Source: an uncultured bacterium
GTDB taxonomy: Bacteria; Hinthialibacterota; Hinthialibacteria; OLB16
Assembly: GCA_964581845.1 (NCBI GenBank)
Contig: CAZORO010000002.1
Location: 1-50,298, forward strand
Length of the DNA stretch: 50,298 nucleotides
Reading direction: 5' to 3'
The notes under the pieces were generated by a model. The model searched no databases. It was not told the origin of the DNA and worked only from the letters and a program-made list of their open reading frames with translations. A program made the position numbers and the translations under genes. Shown piece by piece: positions 7,727 through 34,158 of this stretch; within the stretch, counting starts at the first letter, position 1, and each line of letters begins with the position of its first letter.

Positions 7727-7840
7727 TCCCGAGCTCCTCCACAGTGCATTGGAAAATGGATTTCTTTCTTTCCCATTTGTGATTCATGGGAGGATGTTAA
7801 TCGATAATGCAGTTTTCCACTCGATTTGGCTGATAATCTA

Positions 7841-10318: not shown

Positions 10319-11080
10319 GATCAACCTCCTTCACGAAACCAGAGAACTTTTTATAGGTCAGGTTACCCCTGGCCAGTGGGGCCATCACAATCTCAGTCCC
10401 TAATCGTTTCCTTGGAAACCGGCTGGCTTCCCATCCCACGAGATCATGTCAACCCAGGATTAGGGTATAAAAAAGCAAATCCATTCAGATTCAGTATTGT
10501 GTATAATGCATAATATACGTCACGAGGTCAACCATCCTGATCTTCCTATCAAAAGATAAAGCGAATCCTTAATGATTTGCGGTAGCACTGCCGGAAACCT
10601 CCACTTCTTCTGTCATTCCGATCATTTCAATAATAAAAACATTAACTGGCGGAGAGAGTAGTTACCTGTGTTTGGTGGTGGATTTTGGAGAGTAATCAAC
10701 TCCTCATTAATCCGCTTTCCAAAGCGGTAAATGGAGGTCAACGATTTTCCCGCTTTCATCCGGCATCTGGTGATAGAAACGAGAGGTATTTGCGATGTAT
10801 GACTTCAGATCACGAATCTGGAGTTGTTCCATAGGAAGACTGGCCTACCGATGGCGCAAGAACGAAATACGTACATGAATGCAAGGGAGACTATGATATC
10901 TTCTTCCTAATGATGTAAACACTCCCCCTTCAAGAAGATCAAAAGAAACGGAATACTAGCAGCCTGTTGGAAAAAATGTCGGTGTCACAGTGGATTCCCG
11001 CCTTTGCCGGAATGATGATTTAGGAAAGATGATGCCCATTTGGTTATTCCCGCGAAGGGAATTCAATAGGAGGAATTGCG

Positions 11081-12491: not shown

Positions 12492-15059
12492 ATGACAGAG
12501 AAAATCGAAAATCCTTTTGTTCAACTCCGGGTGCATGAGGAGGGCACCTGCGGGATACGGGTGGATCCAAATGGAGAATCCAATTACCGTTGGATAGGAA
12601 TCAACCGTATCCAGCCACTTGGGATCCTCTCACAGGGCGGGGCGCGATGCACTCGAATCGATCCAAACAAGCTTCGAGTTGATGGTGTCTCATGCAGGCT
12701 GGAAGTCCCAAGGTTTCATGGAACAGACCTTCCGATCTACGAGGGTGTTCCGATATATGGTTGGCCAGACAAAGCCTGGAAGATTCCCGCCGGAACAAGG
12801 TTTGCCCAGACTTTCACAGCGGAACACACCTTCGTGCGTGCAGGTGTGTACATTTATGCCGCTGGCAGCCCACGGGATTGCAGGTACCGCGTGACATTAC
12901 GCAAGGAAGGACCCTCCGGGAAAATTCTGTCATCTATTGTCGAAAGCGGAGATAAAGCGTTTGGTTATCCAACCATCTGGAGCTTCATGGAAACTGAACC
13001 TCTCGAGGAGGGTATTTACTGTCTTGAGGTTTCTGAGACGGAGGGTGATATCCGTTGGTGGGGAACTGTTTCAAGGACATATTCCGGAGGTTGTGCCTTC
13101 ATCGATGGCGTGCCTGATGAGGATCGTGATTTCATCTTCCTGTATGGATATACGGACTCGGCCGTCGTGCCCTGTTCGTGGGAAATGACTATTCATGATT
13201 CGCAGATACTCCTGTCAATTCCTGAAATCCCCTCAAGGACCTCAGAAGGTGTGGTTCCAGAGCTGGGATTTGAGGTCCTCACTCCATGGCGCCGGGAAGG
13301 GTATGATATCTCGGATCTAGAAACAGCGCCTTTTTCAGCATTTCTGACAGACCGCTGGCAGTATGTTCCCATCGAGCAGTTCAAACGGTTTCATGTCGCC
13401 TGGCCATCCTACCAGAATCCCACAAGCCGGCCGGCCTTCGAATCATCGTCGTGGCTCCATGCGGTAGGCCGGATGGGTGTTGATCTTTCCTTCTCAGGTT
13501 ATCGCATGACAACACCCTGGCGGCTTTCGGAGAATACGATGCACCTGTCCTTTGTTGGTGAAACATTGCGCATGGAGATGAGACCATCCAAATCCTCTCT
13601 GCCCATCCAACTCCCCTCCTTCAAAAGCTCGGATACTGAATTTGTTGAACAGCAAAACCGGTTCTTCCGTGAACGTTCTCTTGGCCTGGGAGATGGTGGA
13701 GCGGGCGGTGAGTGGATACGCTGGATTGCTCCACAAAGCTGTTGGATAGGTCCACCCAGAAGTGAACGCCTTCGTAAAGGGATTCTCGAACAGAAGGTCG
13801 ATGCGGATGGGTATGTCTGGGTCATGCGGTATGATGGGGGATATCCGCATGGGTTGCGTTACGGAATGCCCCCGCGTGCACGCCGGCACTATGGAGCTAA
13901 TCCAGCGTTGATCATTGGGACCTATCTTTATTTCTGCTGGACTCGAGATCAAGAATTCTTGCGGGAGATGATGCCCAAGCTGCGCAAGGCTTACCAGTTC
14001 CTGAGAAACTCCGAGGATGTGGTCTGGAGGGATGACCTTTTTGTCATCGTTGAGCCTCACCATGATGGAACAGGAAAGGGGATGCCCTCGACCGATCTCG
14101 ACTGCCTTCCCTTTGGCTACAAATGTGCATTGACCAATGCCCATATTTATGAAGCGCTGGATTGTCTGGCGGAGTTGGAGACCTTCTGTCAAGAAGACCT
14201 AAATGCGGAAGAGATTCTGGAATGCCGTTCGCTGCTTCGCCGGTCTTATAACTCCCATTTCTGGGATGAAACCAAAGGCCGGTACATTGGCTGCATTGAT
14301 GTCCATGGAGAACGGCATGACTATGGTTTTGTGCTGCTGAACCTGATCGCCATGCAGGCCGGACTTGCGGATGGCGAGCAAGTCAGGAGAATCTATCAGT
14401 GGATGGAAGAGGAACCCACCGCGATGGGAGTTCCCGATACCTACTATTTCAAAATCGCCCCACGGGCAAACACCCAAGATATTCGTAACTGGTGGTATCT
14501 GGAGGGTGACAAGGAATGGCCAGGAGACATTTCCTTTGGCCTTGGTTTCCAGAATGGGGGGGCTTTCCTGTTCTCATCCTATTTCGACCTTCTTGCCCGC
14601 CTACGGTTCCTTGGCGCTGAGAATGCTTTCAAACGTTACCAAGAGATAATCGGCCGTTATACATTACCAGACCGTCTCTGTGGAGGAAATCCATTTTACC
14701 TGGGTGAGATTGATGGTTACCAGATTGGAGCTTCTGTTGTTTTCCCGGAGGCAGGATTAGTTCCTTGTGTTGTACTCCAGGGTTTTTTAGGCGTGGAGGC
14801 TGGTATTACAGGTCTGCGTATCTGTCCGCAACTACCAGAGTGTCTCCCTGATATCGGGCTTACCAATATTGTCTACTGTGGAAATAAATTTGAGGTGGAT
14901 GCCAAAAAAACGAAAACAGGATATCAAGTCTCTCTTTGGCTTTCCGAGGAAAATCCGAACAGTCCACTTCAGTTTAAGGGGAATAGAATTGGGGTTACAA
15001 AGACTCCCCTTACCGTTTCATTGAAGGCGGGCGAAACGCTGCATCTCTCGGTGGCATGA
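12492..15059 (+). CDS. Large hypothetical protein; the C-terminal half resembles a six-hairpin (alpha/alpha)6 glycoside-hydrolase fold
   Basis: Long uninterrupted ORF. AGGAG lies about 10 nt upstream of the ATG at 12492 (the ORF track starts at the TTG at 12459). The segment YGANPALIIGTYLYFCWTRDQEFLREMMPKLRKAYQFL and later aromatic-rich helices resemble rhamnosidase or debranching-type toroids. I saw no signal peptide. Confidence 0.6.
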   Translation: MTEKIENPFVQLRVHEEGTCGIRVDPNGESNYRWIGINRIQPLGILSQGGARCTRIDPNKLRVDGVSCRLEVPRFHGTDLPIYEGVPIYGWPDKAWKIPAGTRFAQTFTAEHTFVRAGVYIYAAGSPRDCRYRVTLRKEGPSGKILSSIVESGDKAFGYPTIWSFMETEPLEEGIYCLEVSETEGDIRWWGTVSRTYSGGCAFIDGVPDEDRDFIFLYGYTDSAVVPCSWEMTIHDSQILLSIPEIPSRTSEGVVPELGFEVLTPWRREGYDISDLETAPFSAFLTDRWQYVPIEQFKRFHVAWPSYQNPTSRPAFESSSWLHAVGRMGVDLSFSGYRMTTPWRLSENTMHLSFVGETLRMEMRPSKSSLPIQLPSFKSSDTEFVEQQNRFFRERSLGLGDGGAGGEWIRWIAPQSCWIGPPRSERLRKGILEQKVDADGYVWVMRYDGGYPHGLRYGMPPRARRHYGANPALIIGTYLYFCWTRDQEFLREMMPKLRKAYQFLRNSEDVVWRDDLFVIVEPHHDGTGKGMPSTDLDCLPFGYKCALTNAHIYEALDCLAELETFCQEDLNAEEILECRSLLRRSYNSHFWDETKGRYIGCIDVHGERHDYGFVLLNLIAMQAGLADGEQVRRIYQWMEEEPTAMGVPDTYYFKIAPRANTQDIRNWWYLEGDKEWPGDISFGLGFQNGGAFLFSSYFDLLARLRFLGAENAFKRYQEIIGRYTLPDRLCGGNPFYLGEIDGYQIGASVVFPEAGLVPCVVLQGFLGVEAGITGLRICPQLPECLPDIGLTNIVYCGNKFEVDAKKTKTGYQVSLWLSEENPNSPLQFKGNRIGVTKTPLTVSLKAGETLHLSVA

Positions 15060-15069: not shown

Positions 15070-16152
15070 TCACTTTTTGAAAAGTCTCAGGAAGAGCCTC
15101 TCCACTCCGGTACGGGCCCAGCAGTTCTCCATCTCAAGAGATAACTGTGCCTTTCCAAGATTCCTGGAAAGAGCATCGGCCAAGGATTGAGGAGCATTTT
15201 CAAGGTCTATTAGGGTGCTTACTCTTGCGTGGACATCAGACCAGGTGCCTGTTAGGGTCTGATTTCCAAGTTCAACAACCACCAGGGAGGCGGGACGGCC
15301 ATTCACTGGGAGTAAGGTTGAGGACTGCCATTTGGGGATCTCTAGGTGAATCCGGTGTAATTTCTCTTCCCGAGAGATGACAGCTAAAACTTCCATTTGG
15401 TCTATCTGGACCGTGCTGGTCATGCTGGCTACAGATATATGAGATTCGAGTGAGTGGAGCTTGTCCAGCGGAATCAGGGCATCCGCCTCCACATGGACAT
15501 GATCAATTTTCCCGGAGATCATGGCTGGTTCAAACTCAGGTATGCGTACCTCAAGGAAATCTCCTTGGGCAATGGTTACTCGGCCCTTGGGTGTGAAGCT
15601 TACCTCCATGGTGGCCGATTTCAGTGCCGCTATCTCGAAAAGAGAGTCTCCCTTCATATAAGACCGTGGTGTGTTTGTTGGAACCATTTGAGCGGTGGAG
15701 GAAAGGAACCAGCCATCCGCCGGTGAATGAAGGATTTCAGTGGGAGTATCAGCCGGGATGCGGGCGAGCAGCGTCGAGACTTCCGATTTGAGTTTCACTA
15801 TTGATTTCCCGGTGCTGAAGGGAATTTCAGCCATGGCCTTATTGAGATATTCACGAAGGGTCCAGTAAGCGATAGAGGTGGGTTGAGTGATGACATCGGC
15901 CAAGGCATCTCCCTCTTTAACCATGGAGCCTGATTGTTGATGGAACTTGAGGACAACCGTGTGACTACGAGCGATCATTCGTGAGGATTGAGGGACGATG
16001 CGGCATTTGGCGGAGACATACATGTCTGTCTTGACAAACCATGTGAATCCGGTGGCCAGAAAGATGCCAGCGCAGAAAAGATAACCAGCGCCCAGGATAA
16101 TCATCGGTGCGCGCTTAGCGAGATATTGGTTCCAACTTGTCATTGCCACCAT
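15070..16152 (-). CDS. HlyD-like membrane-fusion/periplasmic adaptor protein (short-hairpin variant)
   Basis: AAGGAG lies 6 nt upstream of the ATG. There is an N-terminal transmembrane helix (APMIILGAGYLFCAGIFLATGFTWFV). The split lipoyl-like halves are RIVPQSSRMIARSHTVVLKFHQQSGSMVKEGDALADV and ILHSPADGWFLS...MKGDSLFEIA. It is the last gene of the ABC operon. Confidence 0.65.
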   Translation of the reverse strand: MVAMTSWNQYLAKRAPMIILGAGYLFCAGIFLATGFTWFVKTDMYVSAKCRIVPQSSRMIARSHTVVLKFHQQSGSMVKEGDALADVITQPTSIAYWTLREYLNKAMAEIPFSTGKSIVKLKSEVSTLLARIPADTPTEILHSPADGWFLSSTAQMVPTNTPRSYMKGDSLFEIAALKSATMEVSFTPKGRVTIAQGDFLEVRIPEFEPAMISGKIDHVHVEADALIPLDKLHSLESHISVASMTSTVQIDQMEVLAVISREEKLHRIHLEIPKWQSSTLLPVNGRPASLVVVELGNQTLTGTWSDVHARVSTLIDLENAPQSLADALSRNLGKAQLSLEMENCWARTGVERLFLRLFKK

Positions 16153-16246
16153 CTTCGCTCCTTGTGGACCTCCTCCTCATAACACTACAGGATGTATTTC
16201 TTTATCCTTTCACCAGTTGCTACTTCAGCTCCCTGCATGGAGTGCC

Positions 16247-18016
16247 TTATGAAAGCAGCACCCGCGGATCACCATCCGCAATGATCCTGCCAGCATCCAG
16301 AACAAGAATCCTCTCGAGCTTCATGAGTGCCGCTGAGTTGTGAGATGCCAGGAGCAAAGTGGCTTTATTCCTGAGTGAAAGTATCCCTGTAAGAATTTTA
16401 GATGCGGAGTCTGGATCGACAGACGCAAAAGGTTCATCCAGCAGCAGAACACGTGGGGATCTGATAAGGGCACGCGCGATGGTGAGACGTTGCTTCTGGC
16501 CTCCCGACAAGTCACCTTTTTCCGACATGGCGGTTTCGATTCCCCTTGGGAGCGCGTTAATAAAATCGAGGCAGTCGGCTGTTTTTAGCACATTGGTTTG
16601 GAGATTTGGCAGGGTATGTGAGATCCCATAATAGAGATTTGATAGAACGCTGCCAGCGAATAGGCGGGGGTTTTGGGGGACAAATCCCAGTTGACGGCGA
16701 TAGGAATCGAGGTTGATTTCGCGAAGGTCCACACCATCCACCAGGATCGATCCTGAGACAGGGTCAAAAAAACGCAGCAGAAGAGCCAGAAGGGTTGTCT
16801 TTCCGGTTCCTGAACGTCCGGCTATTCCGGTTTGGGTTCCTGGTTCAATTATGAATGATACATTTTCAAGAAGAGGTGTGTCTTCACGGTAGCGGAAACA
16901 GACATCTCGAAACTCTATCTTTCCGATTAAGGGGGAAACCTGGACAGGATGCTTCGGAATTGAAACGGCGGGCTTGATTTCAAGGACTTCAATGACACGC
17001 TCCGCCGCGACCATCTCACGGCGCATACCTTGAAAATAAAGCGTGACACTTGAGGCGGGAATCAGGATGTTTCTGACTAGAATTTCAAGCCCTGTCCATT
17101 GTCCCAAGGTGAGCACCCCGGTAATATGAAAATAACCCCATAACCCTGTCGCCAGAAAAGCAAATGCCGAGGCAAGACCCGCCGGGTGAATGTAGGCTTC
17201 GCTAATACCTCCAAACACGCACCATTTGAAAAAAGCGCGTTGATATCCACTCAGAACATTGATATATCGATTGCGTTCTCCACGTTCCTGGGTATGGGCC
17301 TGGATCAAGGGGACAGCGGATAGTGTTTCCTGTAGATGTGCGGTTACCTTCTGGCGTTCCTCACGAACCATTCGATCAGTTATCCGCCACTGGGTCACAA
17401 CGCGATGGGAAAACAGGAAATACGGTGGCAGGAAGCAAATGAGTACAAGGGTCGCGCGCCAATCCAATAGAGAAGTCAGGATAATGGCATTGAGGCTTTG
17501 CATGCAAGTCGATATGGCGGTTGGCAATGATACTCCCATCACCCGGCTGGTATCCTGGACATCAGTAAAAGCGCGGAAGACTCTTTCGCCCACAGGATGA
17601 GACTTGTGATAATTCATCGAGAACCGTAACAAGTGTCCGTAAAAGGCACTGCCTACACGGCGATGGATCTCTCGAGAGAGATTGAAACGGATATAAGATT
17701 CGAGAAGGTAATTCAACTCACGCAGCAACGATGTGAAAAGGACGAGTACACACAGTAACAGCAGAAGTGTGGTGCTCTTTCTTGGGAAAGCGTCATCGAA
17801 TATAAGGGTTGAATATATGGGCAGGAGAGAGTTGATCAGAGTTGCCGAGAGGGGAGTTACAAGAAGAACCAGGAGATATTGTGCCCACAGTGGCTTGCAG
17901 TAGGGGAAATAGTAGCGCAGAAGGCGTAGGAGGTGCAGGAGTCCCCCCGATGCAGGTTGAATCTGCTCTGTCTCAAGTGGGAGGACGTAAGGGGAAAGAC
18001 CAGGCTGGGTTGTCAT
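16247..18016 (-). CDS. ABC exporter half-transporter (TMD-NBD fusion) with consensus NBD motifs
   Basis: Six-helix N-terminal half. Walker A GRSGTGKT, Q-loop VPQNP, signature LSGGQKQR, Walker B VLLLDEP, H-loop ASH. The ATG at 18016 overlaps the upstream stop as ATGA. Confidence 0.9.
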   Translation of the reverse strand: MTTQPGLSPYVLPLETEQIQPASGGLLHLLRLLRYYFPYCKPLWAQYLLVLLVTPLSATLINSLLPIYSTLIFDDAFPRKSTTLLLLLCVLVLFTSLLRELNYLLESYIRFNLSREIHRRVGSAFYGHLLRFSMNYHKSHPVGERVFRAFTDVQDTSRVMGVSLPTAISTCMQSLNAIILTSLLDWRATLVLICFLPPYFLFSHRVVTQWRITDRMVREERQKVTAHLQETLSAVPLIQAHTQERGERNRYINVLSGYQRAFFKWCVFGGISEAYIHPAGLASAFAFLATGLWGYFHITGVLTLGQWTGLEILVRNILIPASSVTLYFQGMRREMVAAERVIEVLEIKPAVSIPKHPVQVSPLIGKIEFRDVCFRYREDTPLLENVSFIIEPGTQTGIAGRSGTGKTTLLALLLRFFDPVSGSILVDGVDLREINLDSYRRQLGFVPQNPRLFAGSVLSNLYYGISHTLPNLQTNVLKTADCLDFINALPRGIETAMSEKGDLSGGQKQRLTIARALIRSPRVLLLDEPFASVDPDSASKILTGILSLRNKATLLLASHNSAALMKLERILVLDAGRIIADGDPRVLLS

Positions 18017-19806
18017 ATCGAAGCCCCCTCTTGAAGGGCCCAATAGGAGGCATAGAGTCCTCCTCTTTCAACCAGGTCTTCATGTGTCCCCGACTCCACG
18101 ATTACCCCTTGACTGAGGACATGAATTCGATCGGCATCCTTGACCGAATGGAGATCATGGGAGATAAGAACCGAGGTTCTGTCTCGTGTTACCTCCACAA
18201 GTGACTCAAGCAGGATCCGCCGTGATGCGGGATCCAACAGCGAGGTGGGTTCATCAAGAAGAATCAGCCGGGGATCATGCGCCAGGCAGCGTGCAACAGT
18301 AATTTGTTGTCTTTGTCCCAATGCCAGCTCGGTATCTTTCCCGAGGGTTGCCTCTATTCCCTCCGGAATAGTACGGATGATCTCGTCCACGCGTGCTGCT
18401 TGTGTGGCGTTCTTGAGAACTGATGGGGAAGGTTGACTGAGCCCATAACAGATATTCTGCTGAATTGTGCGTGTAAAAAGGACCGGTTCCTGCAAGACTA
18501 ATCCAGTCTGGCGGCGGAAGGAGGGCAAGTCGACATTCCGAAGATCGACACCATCGATCAGGACTTCACCGTTGTCAGGATCATAGAACCTGAGGATCAG
18601 GTTCATGATAGTTGTTTTGCCGATACCAGAGGGACCCACAAATGCCACTTTCTCTCCGGGTTCGACAACAAACGAAACACCCCTGAGTACAGGTTTTTCT
18701 GGTGTGTATTGGAAGTAGACATCGCGGAACTCGATCTTCCCATGGAGGGGATGGAGCGTGATTGCATTTGGAGGACTTTCGACACACTCACGAAGGTCCA
18801 ACAATTGAAGAATTCTCTCCGCTGGGACCATTCTTAGACGCAGGGATTGGTAGTAGCTGATCAGGATGCCAAGGGGGATGATCGCCTGAACGATGAGAAG
18901 CTTGATGGCGGTCCATTCTCCGATAGACATGTCTCCCCTTAAAACAAGGATTCCGGAATAGACACTGACGATAAAATCCGCAACCACGGCTGGCATGCCA
19001 CTCGGCCAGACAAAAACCACAACAACCTCGTTCAGGAAGCCATAGATCATGTTGAGATAAGTGTATCCCGAAAGGACACGGAGGTATGAAATGCCCTCAC
19101 GCTTTCTTGCTCCATGGGAATAGATGACATCGACGCCGGAAAGAGACTCCTCAAGACGGGCGGTAAGACGTTGGCCATGCTCCCTTCGTTTGAGATCCAC
19201 ATTCCGGTAGATGTTGAAAATGACTTGGGCGATGACGAAGAACACTGGAGCGCAAAGTCCGGCCAGGAGCACAGGCCTCCAATTGATGAAACACATGGTT
19301 GTGACTGTGACAAGGAATTGGAAAAAATACTGAACCATCATCGGAAGGTGGAGACCAAACATTTCCGAAGTATCAATGAGGTCGCTATCGCAGCGGAAAA
19401 TCTTCTCGCCTACCGGTGTGCGATTGTGGTAACGCATGGAAAAATTAAGAATACGATGGTAAAGATGTTTCCCCAGCGAGCCGAGGAAACGGATTCGAAG
19501 GTGACTTGAAACCGTGCTCCGTATAAACACAACCAGGGTTCTTTCAGTCAGGAGTGCTCCAAGGCCAAGGAAGGAGAGTATGAAGAGCAAGACAACGTCT
19601 TTACGGGGAAATGCGGCATCCAGAAAAAGCTGAGAACAAAAGGGGGGCACAACAACCAAGACCGAACCTGCAAATGGGAGTAGGATGAAAAGAAGAAATA
19701 ATTGGGCTTTATATGGCCAGAGCAGGGGGAGGTAACGGTAAAGAACCTGAATAAACCTGTGGATGGTAAGGGGAGGGATGCCCACAGTCTGGTTTTCCTG
19801 GTTCAC
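18013..19806 (-). CDS. ABC exporter half-transporter (TMD-NBD fusion) with a degenerate signature motif
   Basis: Walker A GPSGIGKT, Walker B LILLDEP, H-loop ISH. The signature is LALGQRQQ instead of LSGGQ. The GTG start overlaps the stop of the upstream gene as GTGA. Confidence 0.9.
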   Translation of the reverse strand: MNQENQTVGIPPLTIHRFIQVLYRYLPLLWPYKAQLFLLFILLPFAGSVLVVVPPFCSQLFLDAAFPRKDVVLLFILSFLGLGALLTERTLVVFIRSTVSSHLRIRFLGSLGKHLYHRILNFSMRYHNRTPVGEKIFRCDSDLIDTSEMFGLHLPMMVQYFFQFLVTVTTMCFINWRPVLLAGLCAPVFFVIAQVIFNIYRNVDLKRREHGQRLTARLEESLSGVDVIYSHGARKREGISYLRVLSGYTYLNMIYGFLNEVVVVFVWPSGMPAVVADFIVSVYSGILVLRGDMSIGEWTAIKLLIVQAIIPLGILISYYQSLRLRMVPAERILQLLDLRECVESPPNAITLHPLHGKIEFRDVYFQYTPEKPVLRGVSFVVEPGEKVAFVGPSGIGKTTIMNLILRFYDPDNGEVLIDGVDLRNVDLPSFRRQTGLVLQEPVLFTRTIQQNICYGLSQPSPSVLKNATQAARVDEIIRTIPEGIEATLGKDTELALGQRQQITVARCLAHDPRLILLDEPTSLLDPASRRILLESLVEVTRDRTSVLISHDLHSVKDADRIHVLSQGVIVESGTHEDLVERGGLYASYWALQEGASI

Positions 19807-21299
19807 TTAGGGCCCTCCGCGGCGGAGGAGGTGTAAACCAGGTCATCGAGATAGACTACACAGTGCTTGCTGTTGGCCCATGGTAGATTGAACACACCGA
19901 ATCGATCCAGTATTGCTCCTTTAGCCTTGTCCCCTTCAGCCAGCGGACGGGTGACGGATTGGCCGTTTATTGAGAATGTGATGGCGCCGAGGTTCCCGGT
20001 ACCTGCGGGATCATATTGCAGCGTCCACTCATAGTGGGTTCCATCCGGAAGAAATGTAACAAATCCACCATCACGTTCCTTGTTTCCCTCCGAGGTGCCA
20101 TACAACGGCTGGATGATGCGTCCCGTGTCCGATAGACTGTCGAAATAAACGCCGATGAAGTTCTTTAATGGCCAACCACGTTCAGAAGAGTTGAACCACC
20201 CCAAAGCGAAGGTTGAGTCAACCGAGAAGACCGGCGCTGCGAACTTCCCACGCGCTGACAATTTGTCATCAAGTGTCAGTGGACACACCCGGTCTCCGTA
20301 ATAACCTTGAAACTTTGTTTCCCAAGGATCAACACTGAAAAAGCGTCCACCCAGCTCGCCCGGCTTTCCTCCAGCGAAAAATGTGGGACTGAATCCGAAA
20401 TCCTGAGCACCATATTCCTGTGTGTCTTCAACCAGGTCCCGGTTGCCCTTCCCTTCCCAGCCCGGATCCTTCGATAAGTCCTCGGCTTCTCCATTTATGA
20501 TGAGGTTCTCGAAATAGGCTTCCATTTCCTGGCCCGGGATCTGGTTGTTGAAGATCCCAAAGCGGTCGAAGGCCGCTCCCTGTTCACGGTGATGGCGCGG
20601 GATTGTGAAAAGGGTTGTGACCCCGTCGAGGGTGAACCTGATTTCGCCTGAGCCATCCGCGCCTTTGGGGTTATATTTAAATTCCCATGCATGTGGTGAA
20701 CCATCTGGCGCAATCCGGCGCATAGCATCCTGGTCCAGCTCCTTGACCACCCGTTCCTGGGCCTGGCCGCTGGTATTGACATGAGCGCCACCGGCGGTCC
20801 ATCTGCATGTGCCGTAGCCAACCTCGGCCGCAGGACGGTTCTCGATCTCTTTCGCGTCTGTGTCGGTATGGGTTTCCAGACGAAAACCGAGGAAGTTGAC
20901 CGGGCGCCAACCTTGCTTGGCATGGTTGAAGAACCCCACGAAAATACTACTGCCAGTCTGCCAGCCGAACTGGGTCTGGGCTTGTTTCACCACGACTTTG
21001 CCGGAGGCGCTCAGTGCGTCATCCATCGAAAAAGGTCCGATGACCTTGCCATAATACGCTGGAGTGATACTGCGCCAGACAACACCGCCGATCTCACCCG
21101 GTTGGCCTCCAGTATGGCTGGACATCTGGTATCCAAAATCCTGCTGCTTGGAGACTGGTTTGAGTACAATCCGGTTGCGGAACGAATCCCAGCCAGGATC
21201 GCGATCAAATGACTCACTTTTCATATTCCCCTGTGCCCAAGCCATTAGACCTGGTGAGAGGAGGATCAATAGCACGAGCCCTAAAGACCTTTTGGACAT
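19803..21299 (-). CDS. Secreted protein built from two tandem copies of a roughly 230-aa domain, function unknown
   Basis: Signal peptide MSKRSLGLVLLILLSPGLMAWA. The two halves align, for example FDRDPGWDSF..GGQPGEIGG..MDDALSASGK..GFFN..GWRPVNFLGF..PDGSPHAWEF..GEIRFTLDG..AAFDRFGIFN against LSKDPGWEGK..GGKPGELGG..LDDKLSARGK..GWFN..GWPLKNFIGV..PDGTHYEWTL..GAITFSING..AILDRFGVFN. I moved the start from 21347 to the ATG at 21299. Confidence 0.8.
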   Translation of the reverse strand: MSKRSLGLVLLILLSPGLMAWAQGNMKSESFDRDPGWDSFRNRIVLKPVSKQQDFGYQMSSHTGGQPGEIGGVVWRSITPAYYGKVIGPFSMDDALSASGKVVVKQAQTQFGWQTGSSIFVGFFNHAKQGWRPVNFLGFRLETHTDTDAKEIENRPAAEVGYGTCRWTAGGAHVNTSGQAQERVVKELDQDAMRRIAPDGSPHAWEFKYNPKGADGSGEIRFTLDGVTTLFTIPRHHREQGAAFDRFGIFNNQIPGQEMEAYFENLIINGEAEDLSKDPGWEGKGNRDLVEDTQEYGAQDFGFSPTFFAGGKPGELGGRFFSVDPWETKFQGYYGDRVCPLTLDDKLSARGKFAAPVFSVDSTFALGWFNSSERGWPLKNFIGVYFDSLSDTGRIIQPLYGTSEGNKERDGGFVTFLPDGTHYEWTLQYDPAGTGNLGAITFSINGQSVTRPLAEGDKAKGAILDRFGVFNLPWANSKHCVVYLDDLVYTSSAAEGPK

Positions 21300-21310
21300 T
21301 TGCCAATCCG

Positions 21311-22408
21311 CTACTTCTGTATGGGAATAAAGCCGCTCAGATCCCACAATTTGATGGTTGGGTCTCCCCCCCCGCCACCATTGGCAAGGATCTTTCCATC
21401 AGGAGAGAATCCCAGTGATTCGATGCGCCCCGCATTGCCGGTTAGAACTGCCTTGGGTTCCCATGTCTCCACATCCCAGAGGGTGATGGTTTTATCTTTA
21501 TTACCGCTGGCCAGAACTTTCCCATCGGGCCGGAAGGCCAGGGAGTCACCCTCAAGCGTATGACCAGTCAGAGTCTTCAACAATCGGCCACTGGCGGTAT
21601 CCCACACGATGATAGGACCAAATGAACTATTGCCCGCTACGATCGATCCGTCAGGGGAGATGGTGACTGCTTCATATTGGCCCTCAGTACTTTCCAAGGA
21701 CTTCAAACACTCCCCAGTTTTGGCATCCCAGATGAGGATTTCCTTTCCGGATCCACCACTGACCAGAAACCTGCCATCAGTAGAAAACTCAACTGTTTTC
21801 ACCATTCCTGAATGTCCTTCCAGTGTTTGCCTCAGTCCTCCGCTGGCAACATCCCACAGTCTGACCTTGCTGTCCGCGCTACCGCTGGCGAGTGTCCTGC
21901 CATCGGGGGAAAACGCCACATTCCTCAACAATGAGCCAGTGGCGAGTGTCTGTTTCAACTCATAGGATGGAACTTTCCAGAGGATAATCTTGTTGTCGGC
22001 GCCACAGGAAGCCAAAAGGCTGCCATCAGGAGAGAACGCCACGCAATAAACATCCTCGGTATGCTCCATGAGGACCTTATGCGGCTTCCCCGCCGCCACA
22101 TCCCAAATGATGATGCTGTCATCCCGGCTGGAGCTGACCAGGGTTTTGCCATCGGCGGAGAATGTCAGCCACATCACGGAACCGTTATGGCGTTCAAGTA
22201 CTTGATGGGTGGGCTGGGGTCCGAGAGGGTCAGTCAGTGAGCGTGTGACCGGTGCCTGGGCCACCGATGGAACGAACGGATGGATGAGAGCCCATAATAA
22301 GATTGATTTTAGGATCAATAACCACCCTTGGTGAAGATCATTGGGTGTCTTCGTGGAGTGTTGAGATCCTGGCGGTAACTGGTTCTCCGGTAAGGCCGGC
22401 ATCTTCAT
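21311..22408 (-). CDS. Exported WD40-repeat beta-propeller protein (about 7 blades)
   Basis: Hydrophobic N-terminal segment ending in VAQA. Repeated units such as FSADGKTLVSSSRDDSIIIWD, FSPDGSLLASCGADNKIILW, FSPDGRTLASGSADSKVRLWD, FRPDGKVLASGNKDKTITLWD and FSPDGKILANGGGGGDPTIKLWD. Confidence 0.85.
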   Translation of the reverse strand: MKMPALPENQLPPGSQHSTKTPNDLHQGWLLILKSILLWALIHPFVPSVAQAPVTRSLTDPLGPQPTHQVLERHNGSVMWLTFSADGKTLVSSSRDDSIIIWDVAAGKPHKVLMEHTEDVYCVAFSPDGSLLASCGADNKIILWKVPSYELKQTLATGSLLRNVAFSPDGRTLASGSADSKVRLWDVASGGLRQTLEGHSGMVKTVEFSTDGRFLVSGGSGKEILIWDAKTGECLKSLESTEGQYEAVTISPDGSIVAGNSSFGPIIVWDTASGRLLKTLTGHTLEGDSLAFRPDGKVLASGNKDKTITLWDVETWEPKAVLTGNAGRIESLGFSPDGKILANGGGGGDPTIKLWDLSGFIPIQK

Positions 22409-22672: not shown

Positions 22673-22748
22673 TGGAGCGGGAAACGGGGTTCGAACCCGC
22701 GACCCTCAGCTTGGGAAGCTGATGCTCTACCAACTGAGCTACTCCCGC
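22673..22748 (-). tRNA. tRNA-Gly (anticodon CCC), CCA encoded
   Basis: The reverse complement reads GCGGGAGTAGCTCAGTTGGTAGAGCATCAGCTTCCCAAGCTGAGGGTCGCGGGTTCGAACCCCGTTTCCCGCTCCA. It forms a cloverleaf with a 7-bp acceptor stem, a GCTC/GAGC D-stem, the anticodon loop TTCCCAA and a GGTTCGAA T-loop. It closely resembles E. coli tRNA-Gly. Confidence 0.9.
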
Positions 22749-22809: not shown

Positions 22810-25800
22810 TTACCGTTCGAGGTTCCAGCCCTCAAGCCGTAAGCCCTTGGTTTCATTGACTCTCACTGTTTTCACCTCGCCCGGATTCAACCAGAAGAAA
22901 TTCTCGTCCGCCAGGAAAGTGTCCTCATGTCCCGGACATTGGATGTTCACCCCCACGGCGGGTAGGCTCCCCCGGTTCCTAATGGTCACTGTCTCTCCCT
23001 TTACCGTCATCAAAAGTTGTGTCTTGGGGAGGTCCATTAAGCAATCCTTCCTGGCCTCGTAATTGACCCAGTAGAAGGTTCGATCCTCCAACTTGCCATC
23101 TACCACAACCTCTACGGTGATGAGCAAGGGGGTTGTGTTGGTCTGTCCGCTGGTCAAGTGGAAACCGCCCAGATGCTTGACCCGGTCAATCTGATCCTTA
23201 CCTTTGAAGGAGGTGGTTTGAATCTCAAAGAGCTCCGAGTTGAAAGCCGAGACATTGACCTGCCAGTTATGGTCTTTAAGAGCATCTGTGTCATCCAATA
23301 AGAACACAGGCAGCGTGATCTCCTTTGAGACTGAATTCACTGTATCGAACAGGATACAGCCATGGAGAGGTGAGAAGGCGTTCTCATAGAAGTAGTGGCT
23401 CATCTTGGGGGCACCATACCAATCCGAGCATGCCCAAGAGGCGGCGGGGTAGTTGTCGTTGAGCTTGTAGTAGAGTGATCCGCTGCACTCGGGCCAACGG
23501 GTGCGTGCGCGTTCGAGGGTGTGGCGGACTGCGGTGGTTTGTGCTAGTTGAGAGCCGAGAATGAAATCCTCCATATTGTCAGGATTCATGAAATAGCCGG
23601 AATACTGGTAGAGGCGTGCCATGTCCTCCATCTTGTTGAACACCGGGGTGTGATGGGCGAAGGCGCTTTCATCGGTGGGAGGCCAGGCGGTTTTCTCTTC
23701 CTCGGGAAGGTAACGTAGTACGGACTCGAGGACTGGAAGACAAGCAATGCCGAACTCGCCGAAGAATCCAGCGGTCATAGTCAGGTTGTAGTCAAGATGG
23801 GCTTTTCCCCACCAGCAGCTGTAGTTGTGGATGCTTCCGCCGGCCCCCTCGCCGCGATGGAAGGGGCGAGTCCCATCCAGCTCGATACTCATTTTTCCCA
23901 TCATGTCGATAACCGGATGGAAGATGTCATCGGATTCATTGCCCGCGCCATACATGACCAGCGCGGGATTGTTTCGCAGCCGCAAGGTGTTCAAACGGAT
24001 GGTCTCCTTGAGCATGGGGGTGGGTTGCCAACGGTGACTGTTCCAGGCAGTCGGCCATTCCTGTATCACCATGATGCCCTTCCGGTTGCAGAGGTCGTAG
24101 AATTCATCGGTCTCCGGCATTCCGGCCCCCCAGGCGCGGATGATCTGAACATGTTGCTTTTCAGCGATGGTCAGAAAGCGGTCATACCGTTCCCTGGAAA
24201 AATTCATGAGCGGATCCATGGTGCACCATCCGGTACCCTTCACAAACATGGGGCGTTCATTGACGGTAAAGGTCCAGTTATATAAATTCTTCCTGGGACC
24301 ATCTGGCCAGGGAGTCATTCTGATGGTCCGGAGTCCAAAGGTAGTCTCCTTGTAGTCAGCGGTCCCTTGATTATGGGGAACAAAGGAGAGTTTCAGTTTG
24401 TAGAGGTTTTGCTCACCCAGATCATTAGGCCACCAGATCTTGGGGTCAGGGACCTTAAACTGTAAACGAGCTGTTGCCGTTGCGGATGAGGATTCAATGG
24501 GAATCTTGAAGTGACAGGATTTTCCAGAGAAATTCTCCGGCTGGATTATACCGGACAAGGTGCCGGAGAACGAATTCTTGTTGGCTTGGAGCAGGGTGGA
24601 GAAGTCGAGAAGGCCTTCATGCGCATTTTGTGTGGCGATAAAAGGATCAATGATGCGGACTGTTGGCGAGGTCTCGATCCTGACTGGACGCCAGATGCCG
24701 ATTGCGGGGATATTGCTGTAATGCCAGCCATAGACATTGTTGAAAACCACGGTACGCATCCAGCCGACATTCATACCCCGGAAGAAGTCGTTGGGGAGTC
24801 CCGCCCCTTCCTCGTAGGGCGCGGGAAAGATCTTCACAATAAGGGTATTCTCATCTTGAAGCGAATCCGTGATATCGAATTCCGGTCCTCCGAACATGCC
24901 CTCATGACTTCCCAGTTCCTTGCCATTAAGCCAGACTGTGGTCTTGACAGCGGCACCTCCAAACACCAGGCGGACAGGGGGGTTCCCCCTGGGACACGAG
25001 AAGGTTTTTTTGAACCACCAGGTTTTGAAGCTGTTTTCACGCGCAACGGTGTCATTTAATCCAAATGAAGGCTCAGGAATTTTTCCCGCCTCCACGAGGG
25101 CGGTGTGAACACTTCCAGGGACTCTGGCTGGGATAGTATCAGTCCATTGGGCCGTCAACCGTGCATTCTGATCGCCTTCTTCGGCCATTTCCCAAATTCC
25201 ATCCAGGGAAAGGATCTTCGGGCCTTGTGGCTGGTGAATAGTGCCAGGATTTAATTCAATGACTTGGGGAGTTGCATCCATCGGCGCGGGACTGGCTTTA
25301 AAAGCCTTTCGATCAGCATCATCCATTGACGTTCGAGTGACGGCGTGAGGGGTAAGTACATGACCCTTCGGGGAAGCATCAGGAAAAACACCATGATCCA
25401 GCCTGTCGAGATGCCAGAGAGCGATGGTCTGTGCATCATTTTCAAAAGGAGCGTTGGGGATGGATTCGATGGGCCGGATTCCTTTCGAAATCCGGATTTC
25501 ATCGATGAGACCATTGCAGGAAAATTCATACCCGGTTTGTTCAACCGTGCCGATGCGGAGTGAACCTGGTTTTGACTCCATGGTGTTCCGGGTAACCGCC
25601 TGGTTGGCCACCTCCTTGGCATCGACATATAAACGGACTGAGAATCCATCGAAGGCCATTGCGGCATAATGCCATTTTCCATCGGTGATATCGATGTTGG
25701 AGCGGACATCGGAGGGTGTGTATCCTGGAAGGTAAGCCGAGAAGAAACCCGTACCGCTATAGGTGTAGAGCTCCCAATGAGTTCCGGATTCCTTTGATTC

Positions 25801-26040
25801 ATTGGCGATTAGAAGGTTAAAATCTGTCTTGCTTTTGAGCTGAGTCCAGCACTCAAACGTGAGGGGAGGGTTCTGGAAATCCGTGCTTGCGGGGGTTTCC
25901 AAGGACCCGTTTGGAGCGTAAAGCGCCTTTCCGAAACATCCATCCTTCAAGAGTGTGGAAGTTGGAGTGGTATGGGTTGAGGATGCTCCATCTACCGTGG
26001 CAAATATTGAAAGAATCAATAAGGAATGAAACAATTGCAT
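22810..26040 (-). CDS. Secreted LamG-domain / GH2-family glycosidase (beta-mannosidase-like)
   Basis: AAGGAG lies 7 nt upstream of the ATG. Signal peptide MQLFHSLLILSIFATVDG. N-terminal LamG-like module (FECWTQLKSK...GTHWELYTY...DEIRISKG). GH2-like segments follow: VWLNGKELGSHEGMFGGPEFDITD, GIWRPVRIE, IRAWGAGMPE, YGAGNESD. Confidence 0.85.
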   Translation of the reverse strand: MQLFHSLLILSIFATVDGASSTHTTPTSTLLKDGCFGKALYAPNGSLETPASTDFQNPPLTFECWTQLKSKTDFNLLIANESKESGTHWELYTYSGTGFFSAYLPGYTPSDVRSNIDITDGKWHYAAMAFDGFSVRLYVDAKEVANQAVTRNTMESKPGSLRIGTVEQTGYEFSCNGLIDEIRISKGIRPIESIPNAPFENDAQTIALWHLDRLDHGVFPDASPKGHVLTPHAVTRTSMDDADRKAFKASPAPMDATPQVIELNPGTIHQPQGPKILSLDGIWEMAEEGDQNARLTAQWTDTIPARVPGSVHTALVEAGKIPEPSFGLNDTVARENSFKTWWFKKTFSCPRGNPPVRLVFGGAAVKTTVWLNGKELGSHEGMFGGPEFDITDSLQDENTLIVKIFPAPYEEGAGLPNDFFRGMNVGWMRTVVFNNVYGWHYSNIPAIGIWRPVRIETSPTVRIIDPFIATQNAHEGLLDFSTLLQANKNSFSGTLSGIIQPENFSGKSCHFKIPIESSSATATARLQFKVPDPKIWWPNDLGEQNLYKLKLSFVPHNQGTADYKETTFGLRTIRMTPWPDGPRKNLYNWTFTVNERPMFVKGTGWCTMDPLMNFSRERYDRFLTIAEKQHVQIIRAWGAGMPETDEFYDLCNRKGIMVIQEWPTAWNSHRWQPTPMLKETIRLNTLRLRNNPALVMYGAGNESDDIFHPVIDMMGKMSIELDGTRPFHRGEGAGGSIHNYSCWWGKAHLDYNLTMTAGFFGEFGIACLPVLESVLRYLPEEEKTAWPPTDESAFAHHTPVFNKMEDMARLYQYSGYFMNPDNMEDFILGSQLAQTTAVRHTLERARTRWPECSGSLYYKLNDNYPAASWACSDWYGAPKMSHYFYENAFSPLHGCILFDTVNSVSKEITLPVFLLDDTDALKDHNWQVNVSAFNSELFEIQTTSFKGKDQIDRVKHLGGFHLTSGQTNTTPLLITVEVVVDGKLEDRTFYWVNYEARKDCLMDLPKTQLLMTVKGETVTIRNRGSLPAVGVNIQCPGHEDTFLADENFFWLNPGEVKTVRVNETKGLRLEGWNLER

Positions 26041-26061
26041 GGTTTATCTCCTTTGGTTTGG

Positions 26062-29000
26062 TCAATAATGATGCCAGTTGTTCACTTTCAACGTACTGCC
26101 GCCAGGGCTTGGCGAATCGGCAATCCAATTGGTTGGGTTATTTCCGGAGATATGAGAAGACAAACGGTGCAGAGACTTTCCTTGCCCATCCGCTTCCTCC
26201 GGCCAGGGAGCTGCATGGAAATAGATGACCTCATCGATAACAGCCCATGCGGGGAGGTTCATTTTATCGCCGGTGAGCACAGGGGCCTCGATTGTGATTC
26301 GCTCACCTTTCCCAGAAAGGTGCCCTTCGTAAGGTCCAAGAAGAGTGATTGATCCGGTTGGAAGGTTGTAGGCCTGTTCAAATGTGGCGCGGTTCGATTC
26401 AACTAAGGGTTCAAAGCCGGCAACCAGGACACTGCTCCTTGCGGGAATCTCAAATCCGTTGGGGAAGGTAAAATCGATGCCACCCGAGAACCGCCATGGC
26501 CCCGCGGAATTGCCGCAGGAGACAGTTGAATCAGTGGAATTATGGATTTCAATGTATTCCAGATTCACTGGGCCAGTCTGTTGGGGATGATACATGACCT
26601 CGGAAATGATGAGGGGTGTGCTGCCAGGCTGGTTGTCACCTCCCTTGGTGGGTGCCATCAAGGTAAGGAAGGGTTCAGATACAGGATATCTGCCAGTGCT
26701 CTTGATACTCTCCAATGCTTTATATCTCATGCAATCCACCACGCGATCCTGATCTGTGGGAGGCATGTGTGTGAGAAACAGTTTCCCTCCTGTTGGATCC
26801 AGGTTAAATCCGGCGAGGGAGGTGGCATCCACAATCCAATGTGCTCCTGGTTGGAGTGTAGTTGGGGGGAGGGCCCATTTGTTTAGTTCATCCGCGGAGG
26901 TGCTCAAGAAAAGGTACTGGAAGCTGATGGGGGTTTGAGTGGGATTATGAAGCTCGGCCCAGGGGTGTTTGGCGGAAGCAGAAGCTTCACTGATGATCAG
27001 ACCGGGAATGGGTTCGGGATCCTCTGCTCCAGGAGAGCCGCCGAGGAAGGTGCTGCCACGCCAATTTCCGCCATAGTAAAGAGAACCCGAGGGTTCGTTT
27101 ACATAAGCCTCCGCCAGTGGGACCAGTGAATGTCCCGCGCCACAGGCCTCGCCGGGCCAACCGCGTCCATCGCTGTAGTCAAACTCAACAATGGAGCCGC
27201 CACGGGAATCGATGAGAGCTACATGTTCGCCATTCTTATCCAACCCCCCCTCGTACTCTCCAGCGATGGGAAGGCCAACGCCATAACGTGACTCAAAGGC
27301 GGAATGGTTACTGACAATAAGTGCGTATCCCCCAGGAGCCAGTGATGTGATGGAACCGCGGGAGAAAACGAAACTGACTCCATCCGAAAAAGTAATCCCC
27401 TCAAGATCGAGATTCTCACTTCCCGTATTCTGGAGTTCAATGAATTCAAAATCCCCTGGCGTATAGACACTTCCATCGGGGGGATTGCTGGGATCGAACA
27501 TGAGTTCTGATATGCGAAGCCATTGCTGCTGAGGACTTAATATGGGCTCTCCCTCATAGGTGCATATGATTGTCCCGATGGCGTTCTCCAAAGTGACCGG
27601 ATAGCCGGTATTAGTAAGGCTTCCAGAGTAATTTCCCTGGACAAACAATCCTTGACCCCCTGTGGGTGAAGTGGTTCTTTTCCGGAATCCATTCACATCC
27701 GGTGAGAGATAGAGCACATTGTGCGGTTCTGTACCAGGAATAACCGTGCCTGGTTGGAATTCAAATTCGATAGGACCAGAAATCCGCCATCCAGAAACAT
27801 CGGCGGCAAAATCATTTGGATTCACCAGGCGGATGTAGTCACCGGATTGCGTGTGTGTGACTGGGGCGATATGGATGGAGTCAATTAGTATGGTGGAATT
27901 ATTGGGTTGTGTATCAGGAATTTCCCCACTAGTACGGAATGGGATAGCGGGATTATTTTTAGGCGAGTCATCCGGGAAGGAGTTATCCTCCAAAGCGTCG
28001 AAATGGAAAAGCCCCAGGGTGGATGAATCACTAGTGAGAGGACCAGAGGGAACCGAGTTCATGGCACGGCTGGTATTGGAGATCCTCAAATCATCGATCG
28101 AGCCGGTTATGGGGAAATTATTGGGAGCCTCTTGGTCTGGTAGAGCGCCCACGATGACTGGGTAATTGTTAGAGGCGATGGTTCCGGTGACTGCTTGATC
28201 AATGACCTTGGTACCGTCTACGAAGAGGAGCAACTTTCCACTGGATATCCTGAACGAGATGAAATGCCACTGAGAATCGTTGATCGTGAGCGAAGAGGAG
28301 GAGGTATGGGGAGAGAGGTCTGGGGTGTAGAGGGAGATGAATCCGCTTGAGGGGGTGGTGTAGATTTCCCAATGTCCTGATCCCTTGGGCGCGCGGGAAA
28401 GAAGCACTTGGAAGGATGTAGAAAAACTGATCTTGACCCAGAATTCAGCGGAAAAAACCGAGGAATTAAATTGGCTCAAATAAGGAAGCTCAATTTTCCG
28501 GAGTCCACCATTACCATATTTCGCCGCCTCCGAGAACCTTCCCGTTGTGAGAATATCCTGGGGTGAGCCGCTGAAGTGTGTTTGGTAAAGATGTACCCGC
28601 CGTTGCTGGAAATAGTTGGTTTTCAGAATGCTGAAAGCGGCCGAGAGAGTCTGACTCTGGCCGAAGCCAGGCCCCCATTTGGCGAGATCGAGCGCGGCAT
28701 CGGCTTGAAGGAGGGGATAAAGGTCATCTAGACGTTTCTCGAATAGTAGATCTCTGTTGGCGGTTCCTGGTGGTTGAAGAAAATGGTCCATCAAGGTCCG
28801 TAGACGGCGTACAAACATTTCCCTCAATGCCGGGTGAGCGTATATGGCATCAAAAAGACGGTTGACGCCACAGCAGTTATGTGTGGCGTCGCCATAGAAA
28901 GGATGACTGATAGCTGGACCAGAATCATCGCTTCCAGTGATGTAGTCGCTCTGGAGACCTGATGCGCCAAAGGTCAAATCCTTATCCCAGGGGAAGATGG

Positions 29001-34118: not shown

Positions 34119-34158
34119 CCCCCGGCCCCAAGGGGCGTACTATCGAGGGAGTCCTACC

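Follow-up and report, generated by a model that had tools for sequence, protein, structure and literature searches.

A stretch of 50,298 nucleotides from an uncultured bacterium of the lineage Hinthialibacterota/OLB16 (GenBank assembly GCA_964581845.1, contig CAZORO010000002.1, positions 1 to 50,298 of the forward strand), in the following called the window, carries five closely packed genes on its minus strand. They encode a WD40 protein, a 498-aa tandem-domain protein, two ATP-binding cassette (ABC) half-transporters and a 360-aa adaptor. A first-pass annotation of the DNA had described the five genes as a partly translationally coupled operon for an uncharacterised envelope export or assembly module. 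The genes, a convergent neighbour and the tRNA gene at which the block ends on its upstream side in this genome are listed here.

21311-22408, minus strand: WD40 gene, 365 aa as the longest open reading frame (ORF), true start uncertain
19803-21299, minus strand: gene for the 498-aa tandem-domain protein, start ATG 21299
18013-19806, minus strand: half-transporter ABC1, 597 aa, GTG start
16247-18016, minus strand: half-transporter ABC2, 589 aa counted from the ATG
15070-16152, minus strand: adaptor, 360 aa
12492-15059, plus strand: p866-A, 855 aa, convergent to the adaptor gene and outside the five-gene finding
22673-22748, minus strand: tRNA-Gly(CCC), found with ARAGORN, upstream boundary of the block here

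The junctions between the genes were read directly from the sequence. The WD40 gene ends with a TAG stop that is followed, after 11 nt, by the ATG at 21299 of the 498-aa gene. The 498-aa gene and the ABC1 gene overlap by the GTGA at 19803-19806, with a GGAGG about 10 nt upstream, and the ABC1 and ABC2 genes overlap by the ATGA at 18013-18016, where the ATG of ABC2 lies within the stop of ABC1. A gap of 94 nt separates the ABC2 gene from the adaptor gene, and an AAGGAG is located 6 nt 5' of the adaptor ATG. The ORF list and the direct reading agreed with the first-pass annotation for the five minus-strand genes and for each of these junctions. For the second protein it was right about the 11-nt gap, which leads to the 498-aa product; its size of 514 aa, however, was that of the longest ORF from GTG 21347, which would overlap the WD40 gene by 37 nt. 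A public protein collection holds the 498-aa form (P0001).

The same five genes in the same order were found in two metagenomic relatives, L005, a contig labelled p_OLB16, and L006/L007. The junction pattern of the clade, with 4-nt or 1-nt overlaps and the 11-nt gap, is kept in L005 and L006. The window proteins are 75% (WD40), 78% (498-aa protein), 81% (ABC1), 80% (ABC2) and 48% (adaptor) identical to those of L005; across L005 and L006 the identities range from 45 to 81%, with 45-48% for the adaptor and 71% for the WD40 protein in L006. Since the junctions are kept in L005 and L006 at 45-81% protein identity, the five ORFs are, as judged by this comparison, real and constrained genes and not chance ORFs. 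The convergent 866-aa gene is also kept in L005 and in L006/L007, the L007 contig ending within it, and a GFO/IDH gene lies beyond it in L005 and L006. The block from the WD40 gene through the GFO gene is therefore kept between the window and L005/L006. Upstream of the WD40 gene the synteny breaks: a malectin-domain gene precedes it in L005 and L006, where the tRNA-Gly(CCC) is missing at this position, versus a glycoside hydrolase (GH) family 2 gene and the tRNA in the window. A near-consensus, sigma-70-like promoter-like site (11/12) is located at 22791-22764 upstream of the tRNA-Gly(CCC), and tRNA and site together sit between the GH2 gene and the operon. In the promoter and terminator scan of the window the counts equalled the shuffle expectation, and only the site upstream of the tRNA stood out. 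The gene order is thus conserved in L005 and L006/L007 and is not kept beyond the family level, and we conclude that it is confined to one clade, probably Ca. Hinthialibacterota/OLB16. OLB16 corresponds to Ca. Hinthialibacterota, which was once placed with Omnitrophota in the Planctomycetota-Verrucomicrobiota-Chlamydiota (PVC) group and whose members were inferred to be specialists on complex and sulfated polysaccharides (PMC9324843). This specialism of the phylum agrees with the gene content of the window.

Outside this clade the exporter genes and the genes of the secreted proteins were found apart from each other. The ABC1, ABC2 and adaptor genes, in the following called the trio, recur with overlapping or tight junctions in four distant lineages, L030, L034/L035, L036 and L037. 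There, ABC1 is 50-58%, ABC2 44-55% and the adaptor about 21% identical to the window proteins, and over all lineages the ABC2 orthologues are 44-80% identical. The L034/L035 adaptor carries the source name 'Candidatus Sumerlaeota bacterium' in one source. No homologue of the WD40 or the 498-aa protein was found in these four distant trio lineages. Likewise, no ABC or adaptor gene was found nearby in four independent lineages that carry a homologue of the 498-aa protein, which are Fontivita pretiosa, Planctomycetaceae metagenome-assembled genomes (MAGs), an Armatimonadota MAG and a JGI contig. In one of the Planctomycetaceae MAGs (L002), a 54%-identical WD40 homologue adjoins a gene of the 498-aa family and no exporter is present. 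Because the two genes are adjacent there without an exporter, the WD40 and the 498-aa protein may be a pair in their own right. These distributions do not support the earlier proposal that the WD40 and lectin-like proteins are integral to the ABC/adaptor machine. The proposal of a conserved uncharacterised module does hold for the trio, which recurs across lineages, and we conclude that the trio is a conserved, uncharacterised variant of an ABC exporter with a membrane-fusion protein.

ABC1 and ABC2 both have the Pfam domains ABC_membrane and ABC_tran and hence a transmembrane domain, which begins at about residues 20-40, and a nucleotide-binding domain. The two subunits are 33-38% identical. 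Both subunits have canonical Walker A and Walker B motifs, and no orthologue has lost the Walker B glutamate. The H-loop histidine is likewise present in all ABC1 and ABC2 orthologues, with the sole exception of the ABC2 of L034, which has a tyrosine. The signature motif of ABC2 is LSGGQ in seven of seven orthologues, whereas that of ABC1 is degenerate, with LALGQ in the window and L[AS]LGQ in all seven orthologues. Because of this difference the pair is, to judge from its motifs, built with one consensus and one degenerate ATP site. The closest solved structures are ABCB-type exporters, and the best half-transporters among them are TM_0288 and TmrA, not HlyB or PrtD. ABC1/ABC2 is therefore predicted to be a heterodimeric ABCB-type exporter with one degenerate site. 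It resembles TM287/288, TmrAB and TAP1/2 in having two adjacent half-transporter genes, the ABC_membrane fold and one site with a non-canonical signature. Unlike here, those systems have no adaptor protein, and the degeneracy in our pair is confined to the ABC1 signature (LSGGQ to L[AS]LGQ).

When the NCBIfam models were applied, no equivalog reached its cut-off for ABC1 or ABC2; the best scores were about one third to one half of the cut-offs, and TAP-like, MsbA-like and HlyB-like models scored about equally. TIGR01846 gave 288 and 248 bits (cut-off 726) and TIGR01842 gave 169 and 165 bits (cut-off 510), which places both subunits below the threshold of the HlyB/PrtD family of type I secretion systems (T1SS). 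With NHLM_micro_ABC2, 243 bits were obtained for ABC2 against a cut-off of 709, and the other NHLP-type scores were 195-225 against 853. The pair thus matches no curated NCBIfam equivalog, in line with the first-pass view that the exporter belongs to no standard class. A genome scan with ABC1 over about 185,000 species representatives gave nothing above 32% identity, so no orthologue was found by this method, and a metagenome scan with the alignment of the ABC1 orthologues gave generic nucleotide-binding domain matches only, at 25-45% identity. A defence system was also considered and rejected, as PADLOC returned generic WD40 and ABC-ATPase matches only.

The 360-aa adaptor was more difficult to assign. 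Alone, it matches HlyD_D23 with E=0.007, which is below the Pfam cut-off (16 vs 30 bits). The profile of its 16-member family matches EmrA at 2e-6, MacA at 2e-4 and MexJ at 2e-3, and the profile alignment spans both lipoyl half-motifs ('v..G..V..G..La' and 'aP.dG.v') and the start of the beta-barrel. HlyD_3 is matched by 14 of the 16 members and HlyD_D23 also by 14, the best E being 4e-8. The family is rare, with 33 representative clusters among 1.84 billion proteins; an exhaustive HMMER search was required to find it, and word-indexed searches gave only 3 and 7 proteins. The protein has a short cytoplasmic N-terminus, one transmembrane segment at 15-33 and a hydrophilic remainder, and the anchor is conserved across the family alignment. 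This is followed by a split lipoyl domain with a short helical insert and a beta-rich C-terminal part. A short cytoplasmic N-terminal motif and the C-terminal motif CW..G..RLF.RLF.K are conserved. The two lipoyl halves are separated by about 45-55 residues with predicted helices at 99-109 and 116-131, which is too short for a long alpha-hairpin; this length rests mainly on the alignment, since the confidence of AlphaFold2 (AF2) is low there. The AF2 model of the adaptor, made from a 3-sequence alignment, was poor (pLDDT 60), and Foldseek on this model gave no match at E<=1e-3, with EmrA and MacA at E of about 0.02. From the family profile we conclude that the 360-aa protein is a genuine membrane-fusion protein that has diverged strongly and whose hairpin is short. 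The earlier assignment of the last three genes to an exporter plus adaptor is upheld with the restriction that the adaptor is recognisable through the family profile only.

The adaptor has also diverged far more rapidly than the ABC subunits. It is 48% identical to its counterpart in L005 (7437-8519), while the ABC subunits reach 80-81%, and between lineages it is about 21% identical, while the ABC subunits are at about 50%. An orphan gene of the adaptor family was observed in L038 (6791-7849) with no ABC genes nearby. It follows a DeoR regulator and arabinose-isomerase/FGGY genes, and integrase and transposase fragments are close by, which suggests a rearranged locus.

The first two products of the gene block were then compared with known families. 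The WD40 protein matches Pfam WD40 with E=1e-59 in 6 repeat stretches and has an N-terminal hydrophobic segment at 28-46 that ends with VAQA. The N-terminus of the 498-aa protein, MSKRSLGLVLLILLSPGLMAWA followed by QG, is a classical Sec signal by inspection. Sec-type N-termini were judged heuristically, by a hydrophobic segment ending with AQA or AWA, and by this rule they are present in both proteins, as the first-pass annotation had noted. The WD40 protein is accordingly classed, from its sequence, as a secreted or periplasmic beta-propeller. Sequence searches with the 498-aa protein against Pfam, NCBIfam and PDB gave no match, which a scan of 50 family members did not change, and no Pfam similarity to 3-keto-glycoside (DUF1080-type) or LamG families was found in these 50 members. 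More than 762 homologues make up its family; they come from Planctomycetota, Verrucomicrobiota and Armatimonadota, and every one is annotated as a hypothetical protein. An AF2 model from a 50-sequence alignment (pLDDT 92, pTM 0.88) consists of two beta-sandwiches, and Foldseek put both domains in the concanavalin A (ConA)-like superfamily with probability 1.00 and a best E of 6e-10. The top matches were laminin LG4-5, neurexin LNS, the lectin domains of V. cholerae sialidase, the Aap lectin, galectin-8, legume lectins and polysaccharide lyases of family PL7. The two halves of the protein are homologous (28% identity, E=2e-29). Conserved residues of the family include H203, Y209 and R246. We conclude from the model that the 498-aa protein is predicted to be composed of two homologous ConA-like/LamG-type jelly-roll domains, and the earlier guess of a lectin-like tandem-domain protein is supported at the fold level by the AF2 model, by Foldseek and by the homologous halves. 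Within the ConA-like superfamily (LamG, L-type lectins, galectins, PL7), it resembles laminin LG4-5, neurexin and galectin-8 in its tandem jelly-rolls and differs in that no Pfam family or PDB chain is detectably similar to it in sequence.

Some homologues of the 498-aa protein carry PEP-CTERM or dockerin domains, which indicates that the family acts outside the cytoplasm. Taken together, the WD40 and the 498-aa protein are probably an independent secreted pair that is putatively glycan-binding. Genes of the 498-aa family also occur in head-to-tail arrays, with at least 7 paralogues in Fontivita pretiosa (L001 3925-13123, CP191258.1) and 3 paralogues in the Planctomycetaceae MAG (L002 4944-15031). 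These tandem arrays suggest a diversified family of secreted, putatively glycan-binding or glycan-active proteins.

The conserved partner of the trio lies outside the coordinates of the five-gene finding and is the p866 family. The p866-A gene of the window is convergent to the adaptor gene, with 10 nt between the two stops, and its start, judged from the orthologous sequences, is probably the ATG at 12492 (MTEKIENPF...). Homologues of p866 are recurrent neighbours and lie beside the trio in three of the four distant lineages. The family loci are as follows.

window 12492-15059, plus strand
L034 98-2773 and 2902-6162
L030 376-3582
L037 2023-6327 and 18595-21090

Two subfamilies were distinguished. 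Subfamily A is leaderless, 855-891 aa long and 46-73% identical, and is found in the window clade, L034 and L037; the p866-A orthologues in the trio loci of L034 and L037 are 46-51% identical to the window protein. Subfamily B has about 1070-1430 aa with Sec-type signals (in L034 once the ORF is extended to an upstream start) and is located directly upstream of ABC1; the two genes are 9 nt apart in L030 and 168 nt apart in L034, and in L037 they overlap by 26 nt. p866-A has no N-terminal hydrophobic segment, and none of five orthologues has an N-terminal signal. The cysteine content is 2.0-2.5% in subfamily A (17-21 Cys; 2.3% in the window) versus 0.7-1.1% in subfamily B, a contrast that fits a cytoplasmic subfamily A and an exported subfamily B. 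The C-termini of p866-A are not conserved and beta-strand-like, and the pI values lie between 5.4 and 8.6. Pfam gave no significant match for the family. Weak matches were obtained to GH94 (1v7v, E=1.4e-3), rhamnosidase B (0.04), an MGH1-like GH (4e-5), trehalase (1.7e-4) and the GH65 C-terminal domain (2.5e-3); they are all mutually consistent, and p866 weakly resembles, at the level of these matches, six-hairpin (alpha/alpha)6 glycosidases/phosphorylases.

Every trio locus lies amid genes for the catabolism of rhamnose/fucose-type glycans, such as GH106, fucose isomerase, FGGY kinase, RhaD-like aldolase/dehydrogenase, GFO/IDH and AP_endonuc_2. In the window, the flanks at 2852-10324, 22810-34032 and 34780-45688 form a region of glycan degradation and deoxyhexose catabolism. 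The degradation genes encode a BNR sialidase-like protein, two GH116-like proteins, a GH2 with LamG, a 1733-aa CotH/LTD/LamG protein and a beta-helix protein, and the catabolism genes GFO/IDH, ADH, FGGY kinase, 2-hydroxyacid dehydrogenase, AP_endonuc_2, L-fucose isomerase and a sugar transporter of the major facilitator superfamily. Two ORFs of this region have no Pfam match: one of 253 aa (6965-7726, minus strand), which overlaps the GH116-like gene (4438-6978) by 14 nt, and one of 318 aa (38444-39400, plus strand), which overlaps the FGGY kinase gene (36906-38447) by 4 nt. In several lineages, the adaptor gene is directly followed by, or lies close to, pseudopilin-like genes with an N-terminal methylation motif, and two of five of these genes also have SBP_bac_10. 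They are located as follows.

L030 8576-9688
L035 11304-11936
L037 14040-14675
L038 1050-2114
window 34084-34749

Their proximity could be chance; the pseudopilin-like family may be abundant in such genomes.

The codon composition was also compared. The G+C content at third codon positions (GC3) is 0.59 in the WD40 and 498-aa genes versus 0.49-0.55 in the ABC1, ABC2, adaptor, p866 and GFO genes, and the plus-strand GC skew changes sign near position 20000. Two modules with separate histories would be compatible with both observations, yet these stay within the range of the window. The GC3 step is small and inside this range and is therefore not evidence of a recent transfer.

We read the finding as a mosaic, in which a secreted WD40/tandem-lectin pair is fused onto a conserved exporter of glycan-catabolism loci. 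On balance, the cluster is probably a lineage-specific composite transcription unit in a deoxyhexose-glycan catabolic region and not a dedicated five-part machine. At its core would lie a rare conserved exporter in which two unlike ABCB-type half-transporters are combined with a small single-pass adaptor. The canonical ATP site would be formed by Walker A/B of ABC1 with the LSGGQ of ABC2, and the degenerate site by Walker A/B of ABC2 with the L[AS]LGQ of ABC1. ATP turnover at the consensus site would drive the switching of the heterodimer from the inward to the outward state and move a substrate from the cytoplasm or the inner leaflet into a short periplasmic chamber lined by the adaptor. The substrate could then be freed into the periplasm or handed to an unlinked outer-membrane partner. 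No outer-membrane duct gene linked to the trio was found, and the domain scan, which covered 25 of the 30 window ORFs of at least 200 aa, detected neither a C39 peptidase nor an OEP/TolC domain; genes for TolC proteins frequently lie elsewhere in a genome. The WD40 and lectin-like proteins would reach the periplasm or the exterior on their own by their Sec-type N-termini. In this clade they would have taken the slot upstream of ABC1 that is filled elsewhere by other secreted proteins, and would be translationally coupled there and co-expressed in the same glycan-handling programme. ABCB-type exporters are loaded on the cytoplasmic side or out of the inner leaflet, and not on the periplasmic side. 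Because of this loading, the Sec-type N-termini and the non-conserved association, the two proteins are unlikely to be cargo or structural subunits. What the data show are the gene structure, the folds, the asymmetry of the motifs and how the modules are distributed; co-transcription, the direction of transport and the non-cargo status of the two proteins are inferred.

For the substrate of the exporter we consider a non-protein compound or small peptide tied to glycan catabolism, such as a hydrophobic aglycone, a lipid-like molecule or a glycoconjugate, to be the leading candidate, with slightly less than an even chance. The leaderless p866-A protein is an improbable substrate, the post-Sec handling of an exoprotein encoded upstream is improbable to the same degree, and what is left falls to something else.

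Several observations weigh against a composite unit of this kind. All three clade members keep the GTGA by which the 498-aa gene overlaps ABC1, so that a real stoichiometric or physical link is possible. The gene directly 5' of ABC1 is tightly joined in every lineage, with a secreted product in four of five, and the slot upstream of ABC1 is the position of the cargo gene in classical T1SS and bacteriocin operons. In L036, ConA-like (Laminin_G_3) secreted proteins are encoded on both sides of the trio. The preference for a non-protein substrate is weakened because PF00664-type ABC exporters paired with adaptors mostly export polypeptides. Moreover, the sample consists of five independent trio lineages and four independent exporter-less lineages of the 498-aa family, and the proposed mechanism is drawn by analogy.

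A rival reading, in line with the first-pass annotation, is a single dedicated envelope export or assembly module of all five products, with the WD40 and lectin-like proteins as scaffolds or post-Sec substrates. The tight or overlapping junctions kept in the three clade members are consistent with it, and so is the signal-peptide protein encoded directly 5' of ABC1 in three of the four distant lineages (L030, L037, L034); the upstream gene of L036 shares 4 nt with ABC1 and encodes a 179-aa product in which no signal peptide is seen. The LamG-type secreted proteins that flank the L036 trio and the adaptor identity of 48% versus 80-81% for the ABC subunits, which would fit an adaptation to a variable periplasmic partner, point in the same direction. 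A composite ABC/adaptor precedent is Aat of enteroaggregative E. coli, which moves a Sec-exported protein to the cell surface (PMC7943197). Aat and MacAB-TolC are both precedents for ABC/adaptor machines acting on Sec-exported substrates, but they use MacB-type (type VII) permeases and a TolC-like duct, with an acyltransferase in Aat, whereas our system has the ABCB-type fold and neither an Aat-like acyltransferase nor an outer-membrane component. Since homologues of the WD40 and 498-aa proteins are absent from the four distant trio lineages, the 498-aa family is exporter-less in four independent lineages and ABCB-type exporters do not load from the periplasm, we regard a five-part module as improbable. 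By analogy, a post-Sec client-handling role that is loosely Aat-like would be about as improbable or slightly more so. In a wider form of this idea, the trio would be a novel device by which Ca. Hinthialibacterota, Sumerlaeota and uncultured phyla related to them secrete glycan-active exoproteins or deliver them to the surface. The client would be the product of the gene coupled 5' of ABC1, which is p866-B in most lineages and the tandem lectin plus WD40 protein here; it would be handled despite or after Sec, and the fast-evolving adaptor would match each client. We give this a small chance. The opposite view, that the five genes are packed together without a shared function and that the overlaps reflect genome compaction, is comparably doubtful. 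The modules are distributed separately and GC3 steps from 0.59 (WD40 and 498-aa genes) to 0.50-0.55 (ABC1, ABC2, adaptor, p866), as would be expected from this view; however, the block and its overlaps were kept over a divergence that reduced the adaptor to 45-48% identity while the upstream flank changed, and all modules share a glycan-related theme.

A further possibility is that the exporter is a type-I-like device that secretes the leaderless p866-A, resembling PrsDE of Rhizobium, which exports glycanases (PlyA/B) and lectin-like Rap proteins (PMC9298526, PMC2275737) and is a precedent for the secretion of glycanases and lectins (PMC5061743). As in T1SS/PrsDE, genes for an ABC exporter and a membrane-fusion protein lie beside those of glycan-active, lectin-like proteins, and the ABC subunits have no N-terminal peptidase domain; an ABC exporter plus adaptor without C39 is the architecture of the PrtD/PrsD type. 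In addition, p866-A is without an N-terminal signal in five orthologues and linked to the trio in three independent lineages. There are also differences. The ABC proteins here are a predicted heterodimer in which one ATP site is degenerate, and they lie nearer to the ABCB exporters than to HlyB/PrtD; the adaptor insert is short, and no outer-membrane factor is linked, with no TolC gene among the scanned ORFs of the window. The WD40, 498-aa and p866-B neighbours carry Sec-type signals, and p866-A, the leaderless protein, is Cys-rich (17-21 Cys, 2.0-2.5%) and has neither a recognisable C-terminal signal nor a conserved C-terminus; its ends look beta-strand-like and its pI is 5.4 to 8.6. The translation shows no evident Gly-Asp-rich (RTX-type) repeats, as read without a dedicated repeat search. 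Six-hairpin glycosidases and phosphorylases that lack a leader usually reside in the cytoplasm, which also counts against p866-A as cargo. Thus, secretion of p866-A by such a device seems rather unlikely.

Least probable of all is that the exporter belongs to the NHLP/Nif11 type of peptide or bacteriocin exporters and that its precursor gene was overlooked. The three-gene architecture is identical: like the NHLP/Nif11 set (TIGR03794 HlyD, TIGR03796/TIGR03797 ABC), the trio has two differing ABC subunits and an HlyD-family adaptor with no TolC gene alongside, and NHLM_micro_ABC2 is among the better NCBIfam matches, with its 243 bits for ABC2. This score is nevertheless far from the cut-off of 709, as are the 195-225 bits from 853; TIGR03796 and TIGR03797 are far below their cut-offs, and the NCBIfam scores amount to about one quarter to one third of them. 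Neither ABC subunit has a C39 peptidase domain. No small ORF common to several lineages was found outside the large genes, all matches being shadow frames of large genes, and the context is glycan catabolism in every lineage. The first-pass statement that the window has no C39 domain, no precursor gene and no TolC gene was thus borne out by the domain scan of 25 of the 30 larger window ORFs and by this cross-lineage search.

Returning to the composite transcription unit as the favoured reading, we see a general lesson in that translational coupling inside one clade failed to predict a conserved functional module. Three families merit description, the tandem ConA-like 498-aa family, p866 and the short adaptor; none of them reaches any Pfam gathering cut-off, and the 498-aa and p866 families are without a significant Pfam match. 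ABCB-type heterodimers are normally studied as stand-alone exporters. Here, a conserved ABCB subfamily is always paired with a minimal adaptor in the glycan loci of barely studied phyla, and this pairing points to an export step in polysaccharide use that is missing from current models, which may be efflux or protein delivery.

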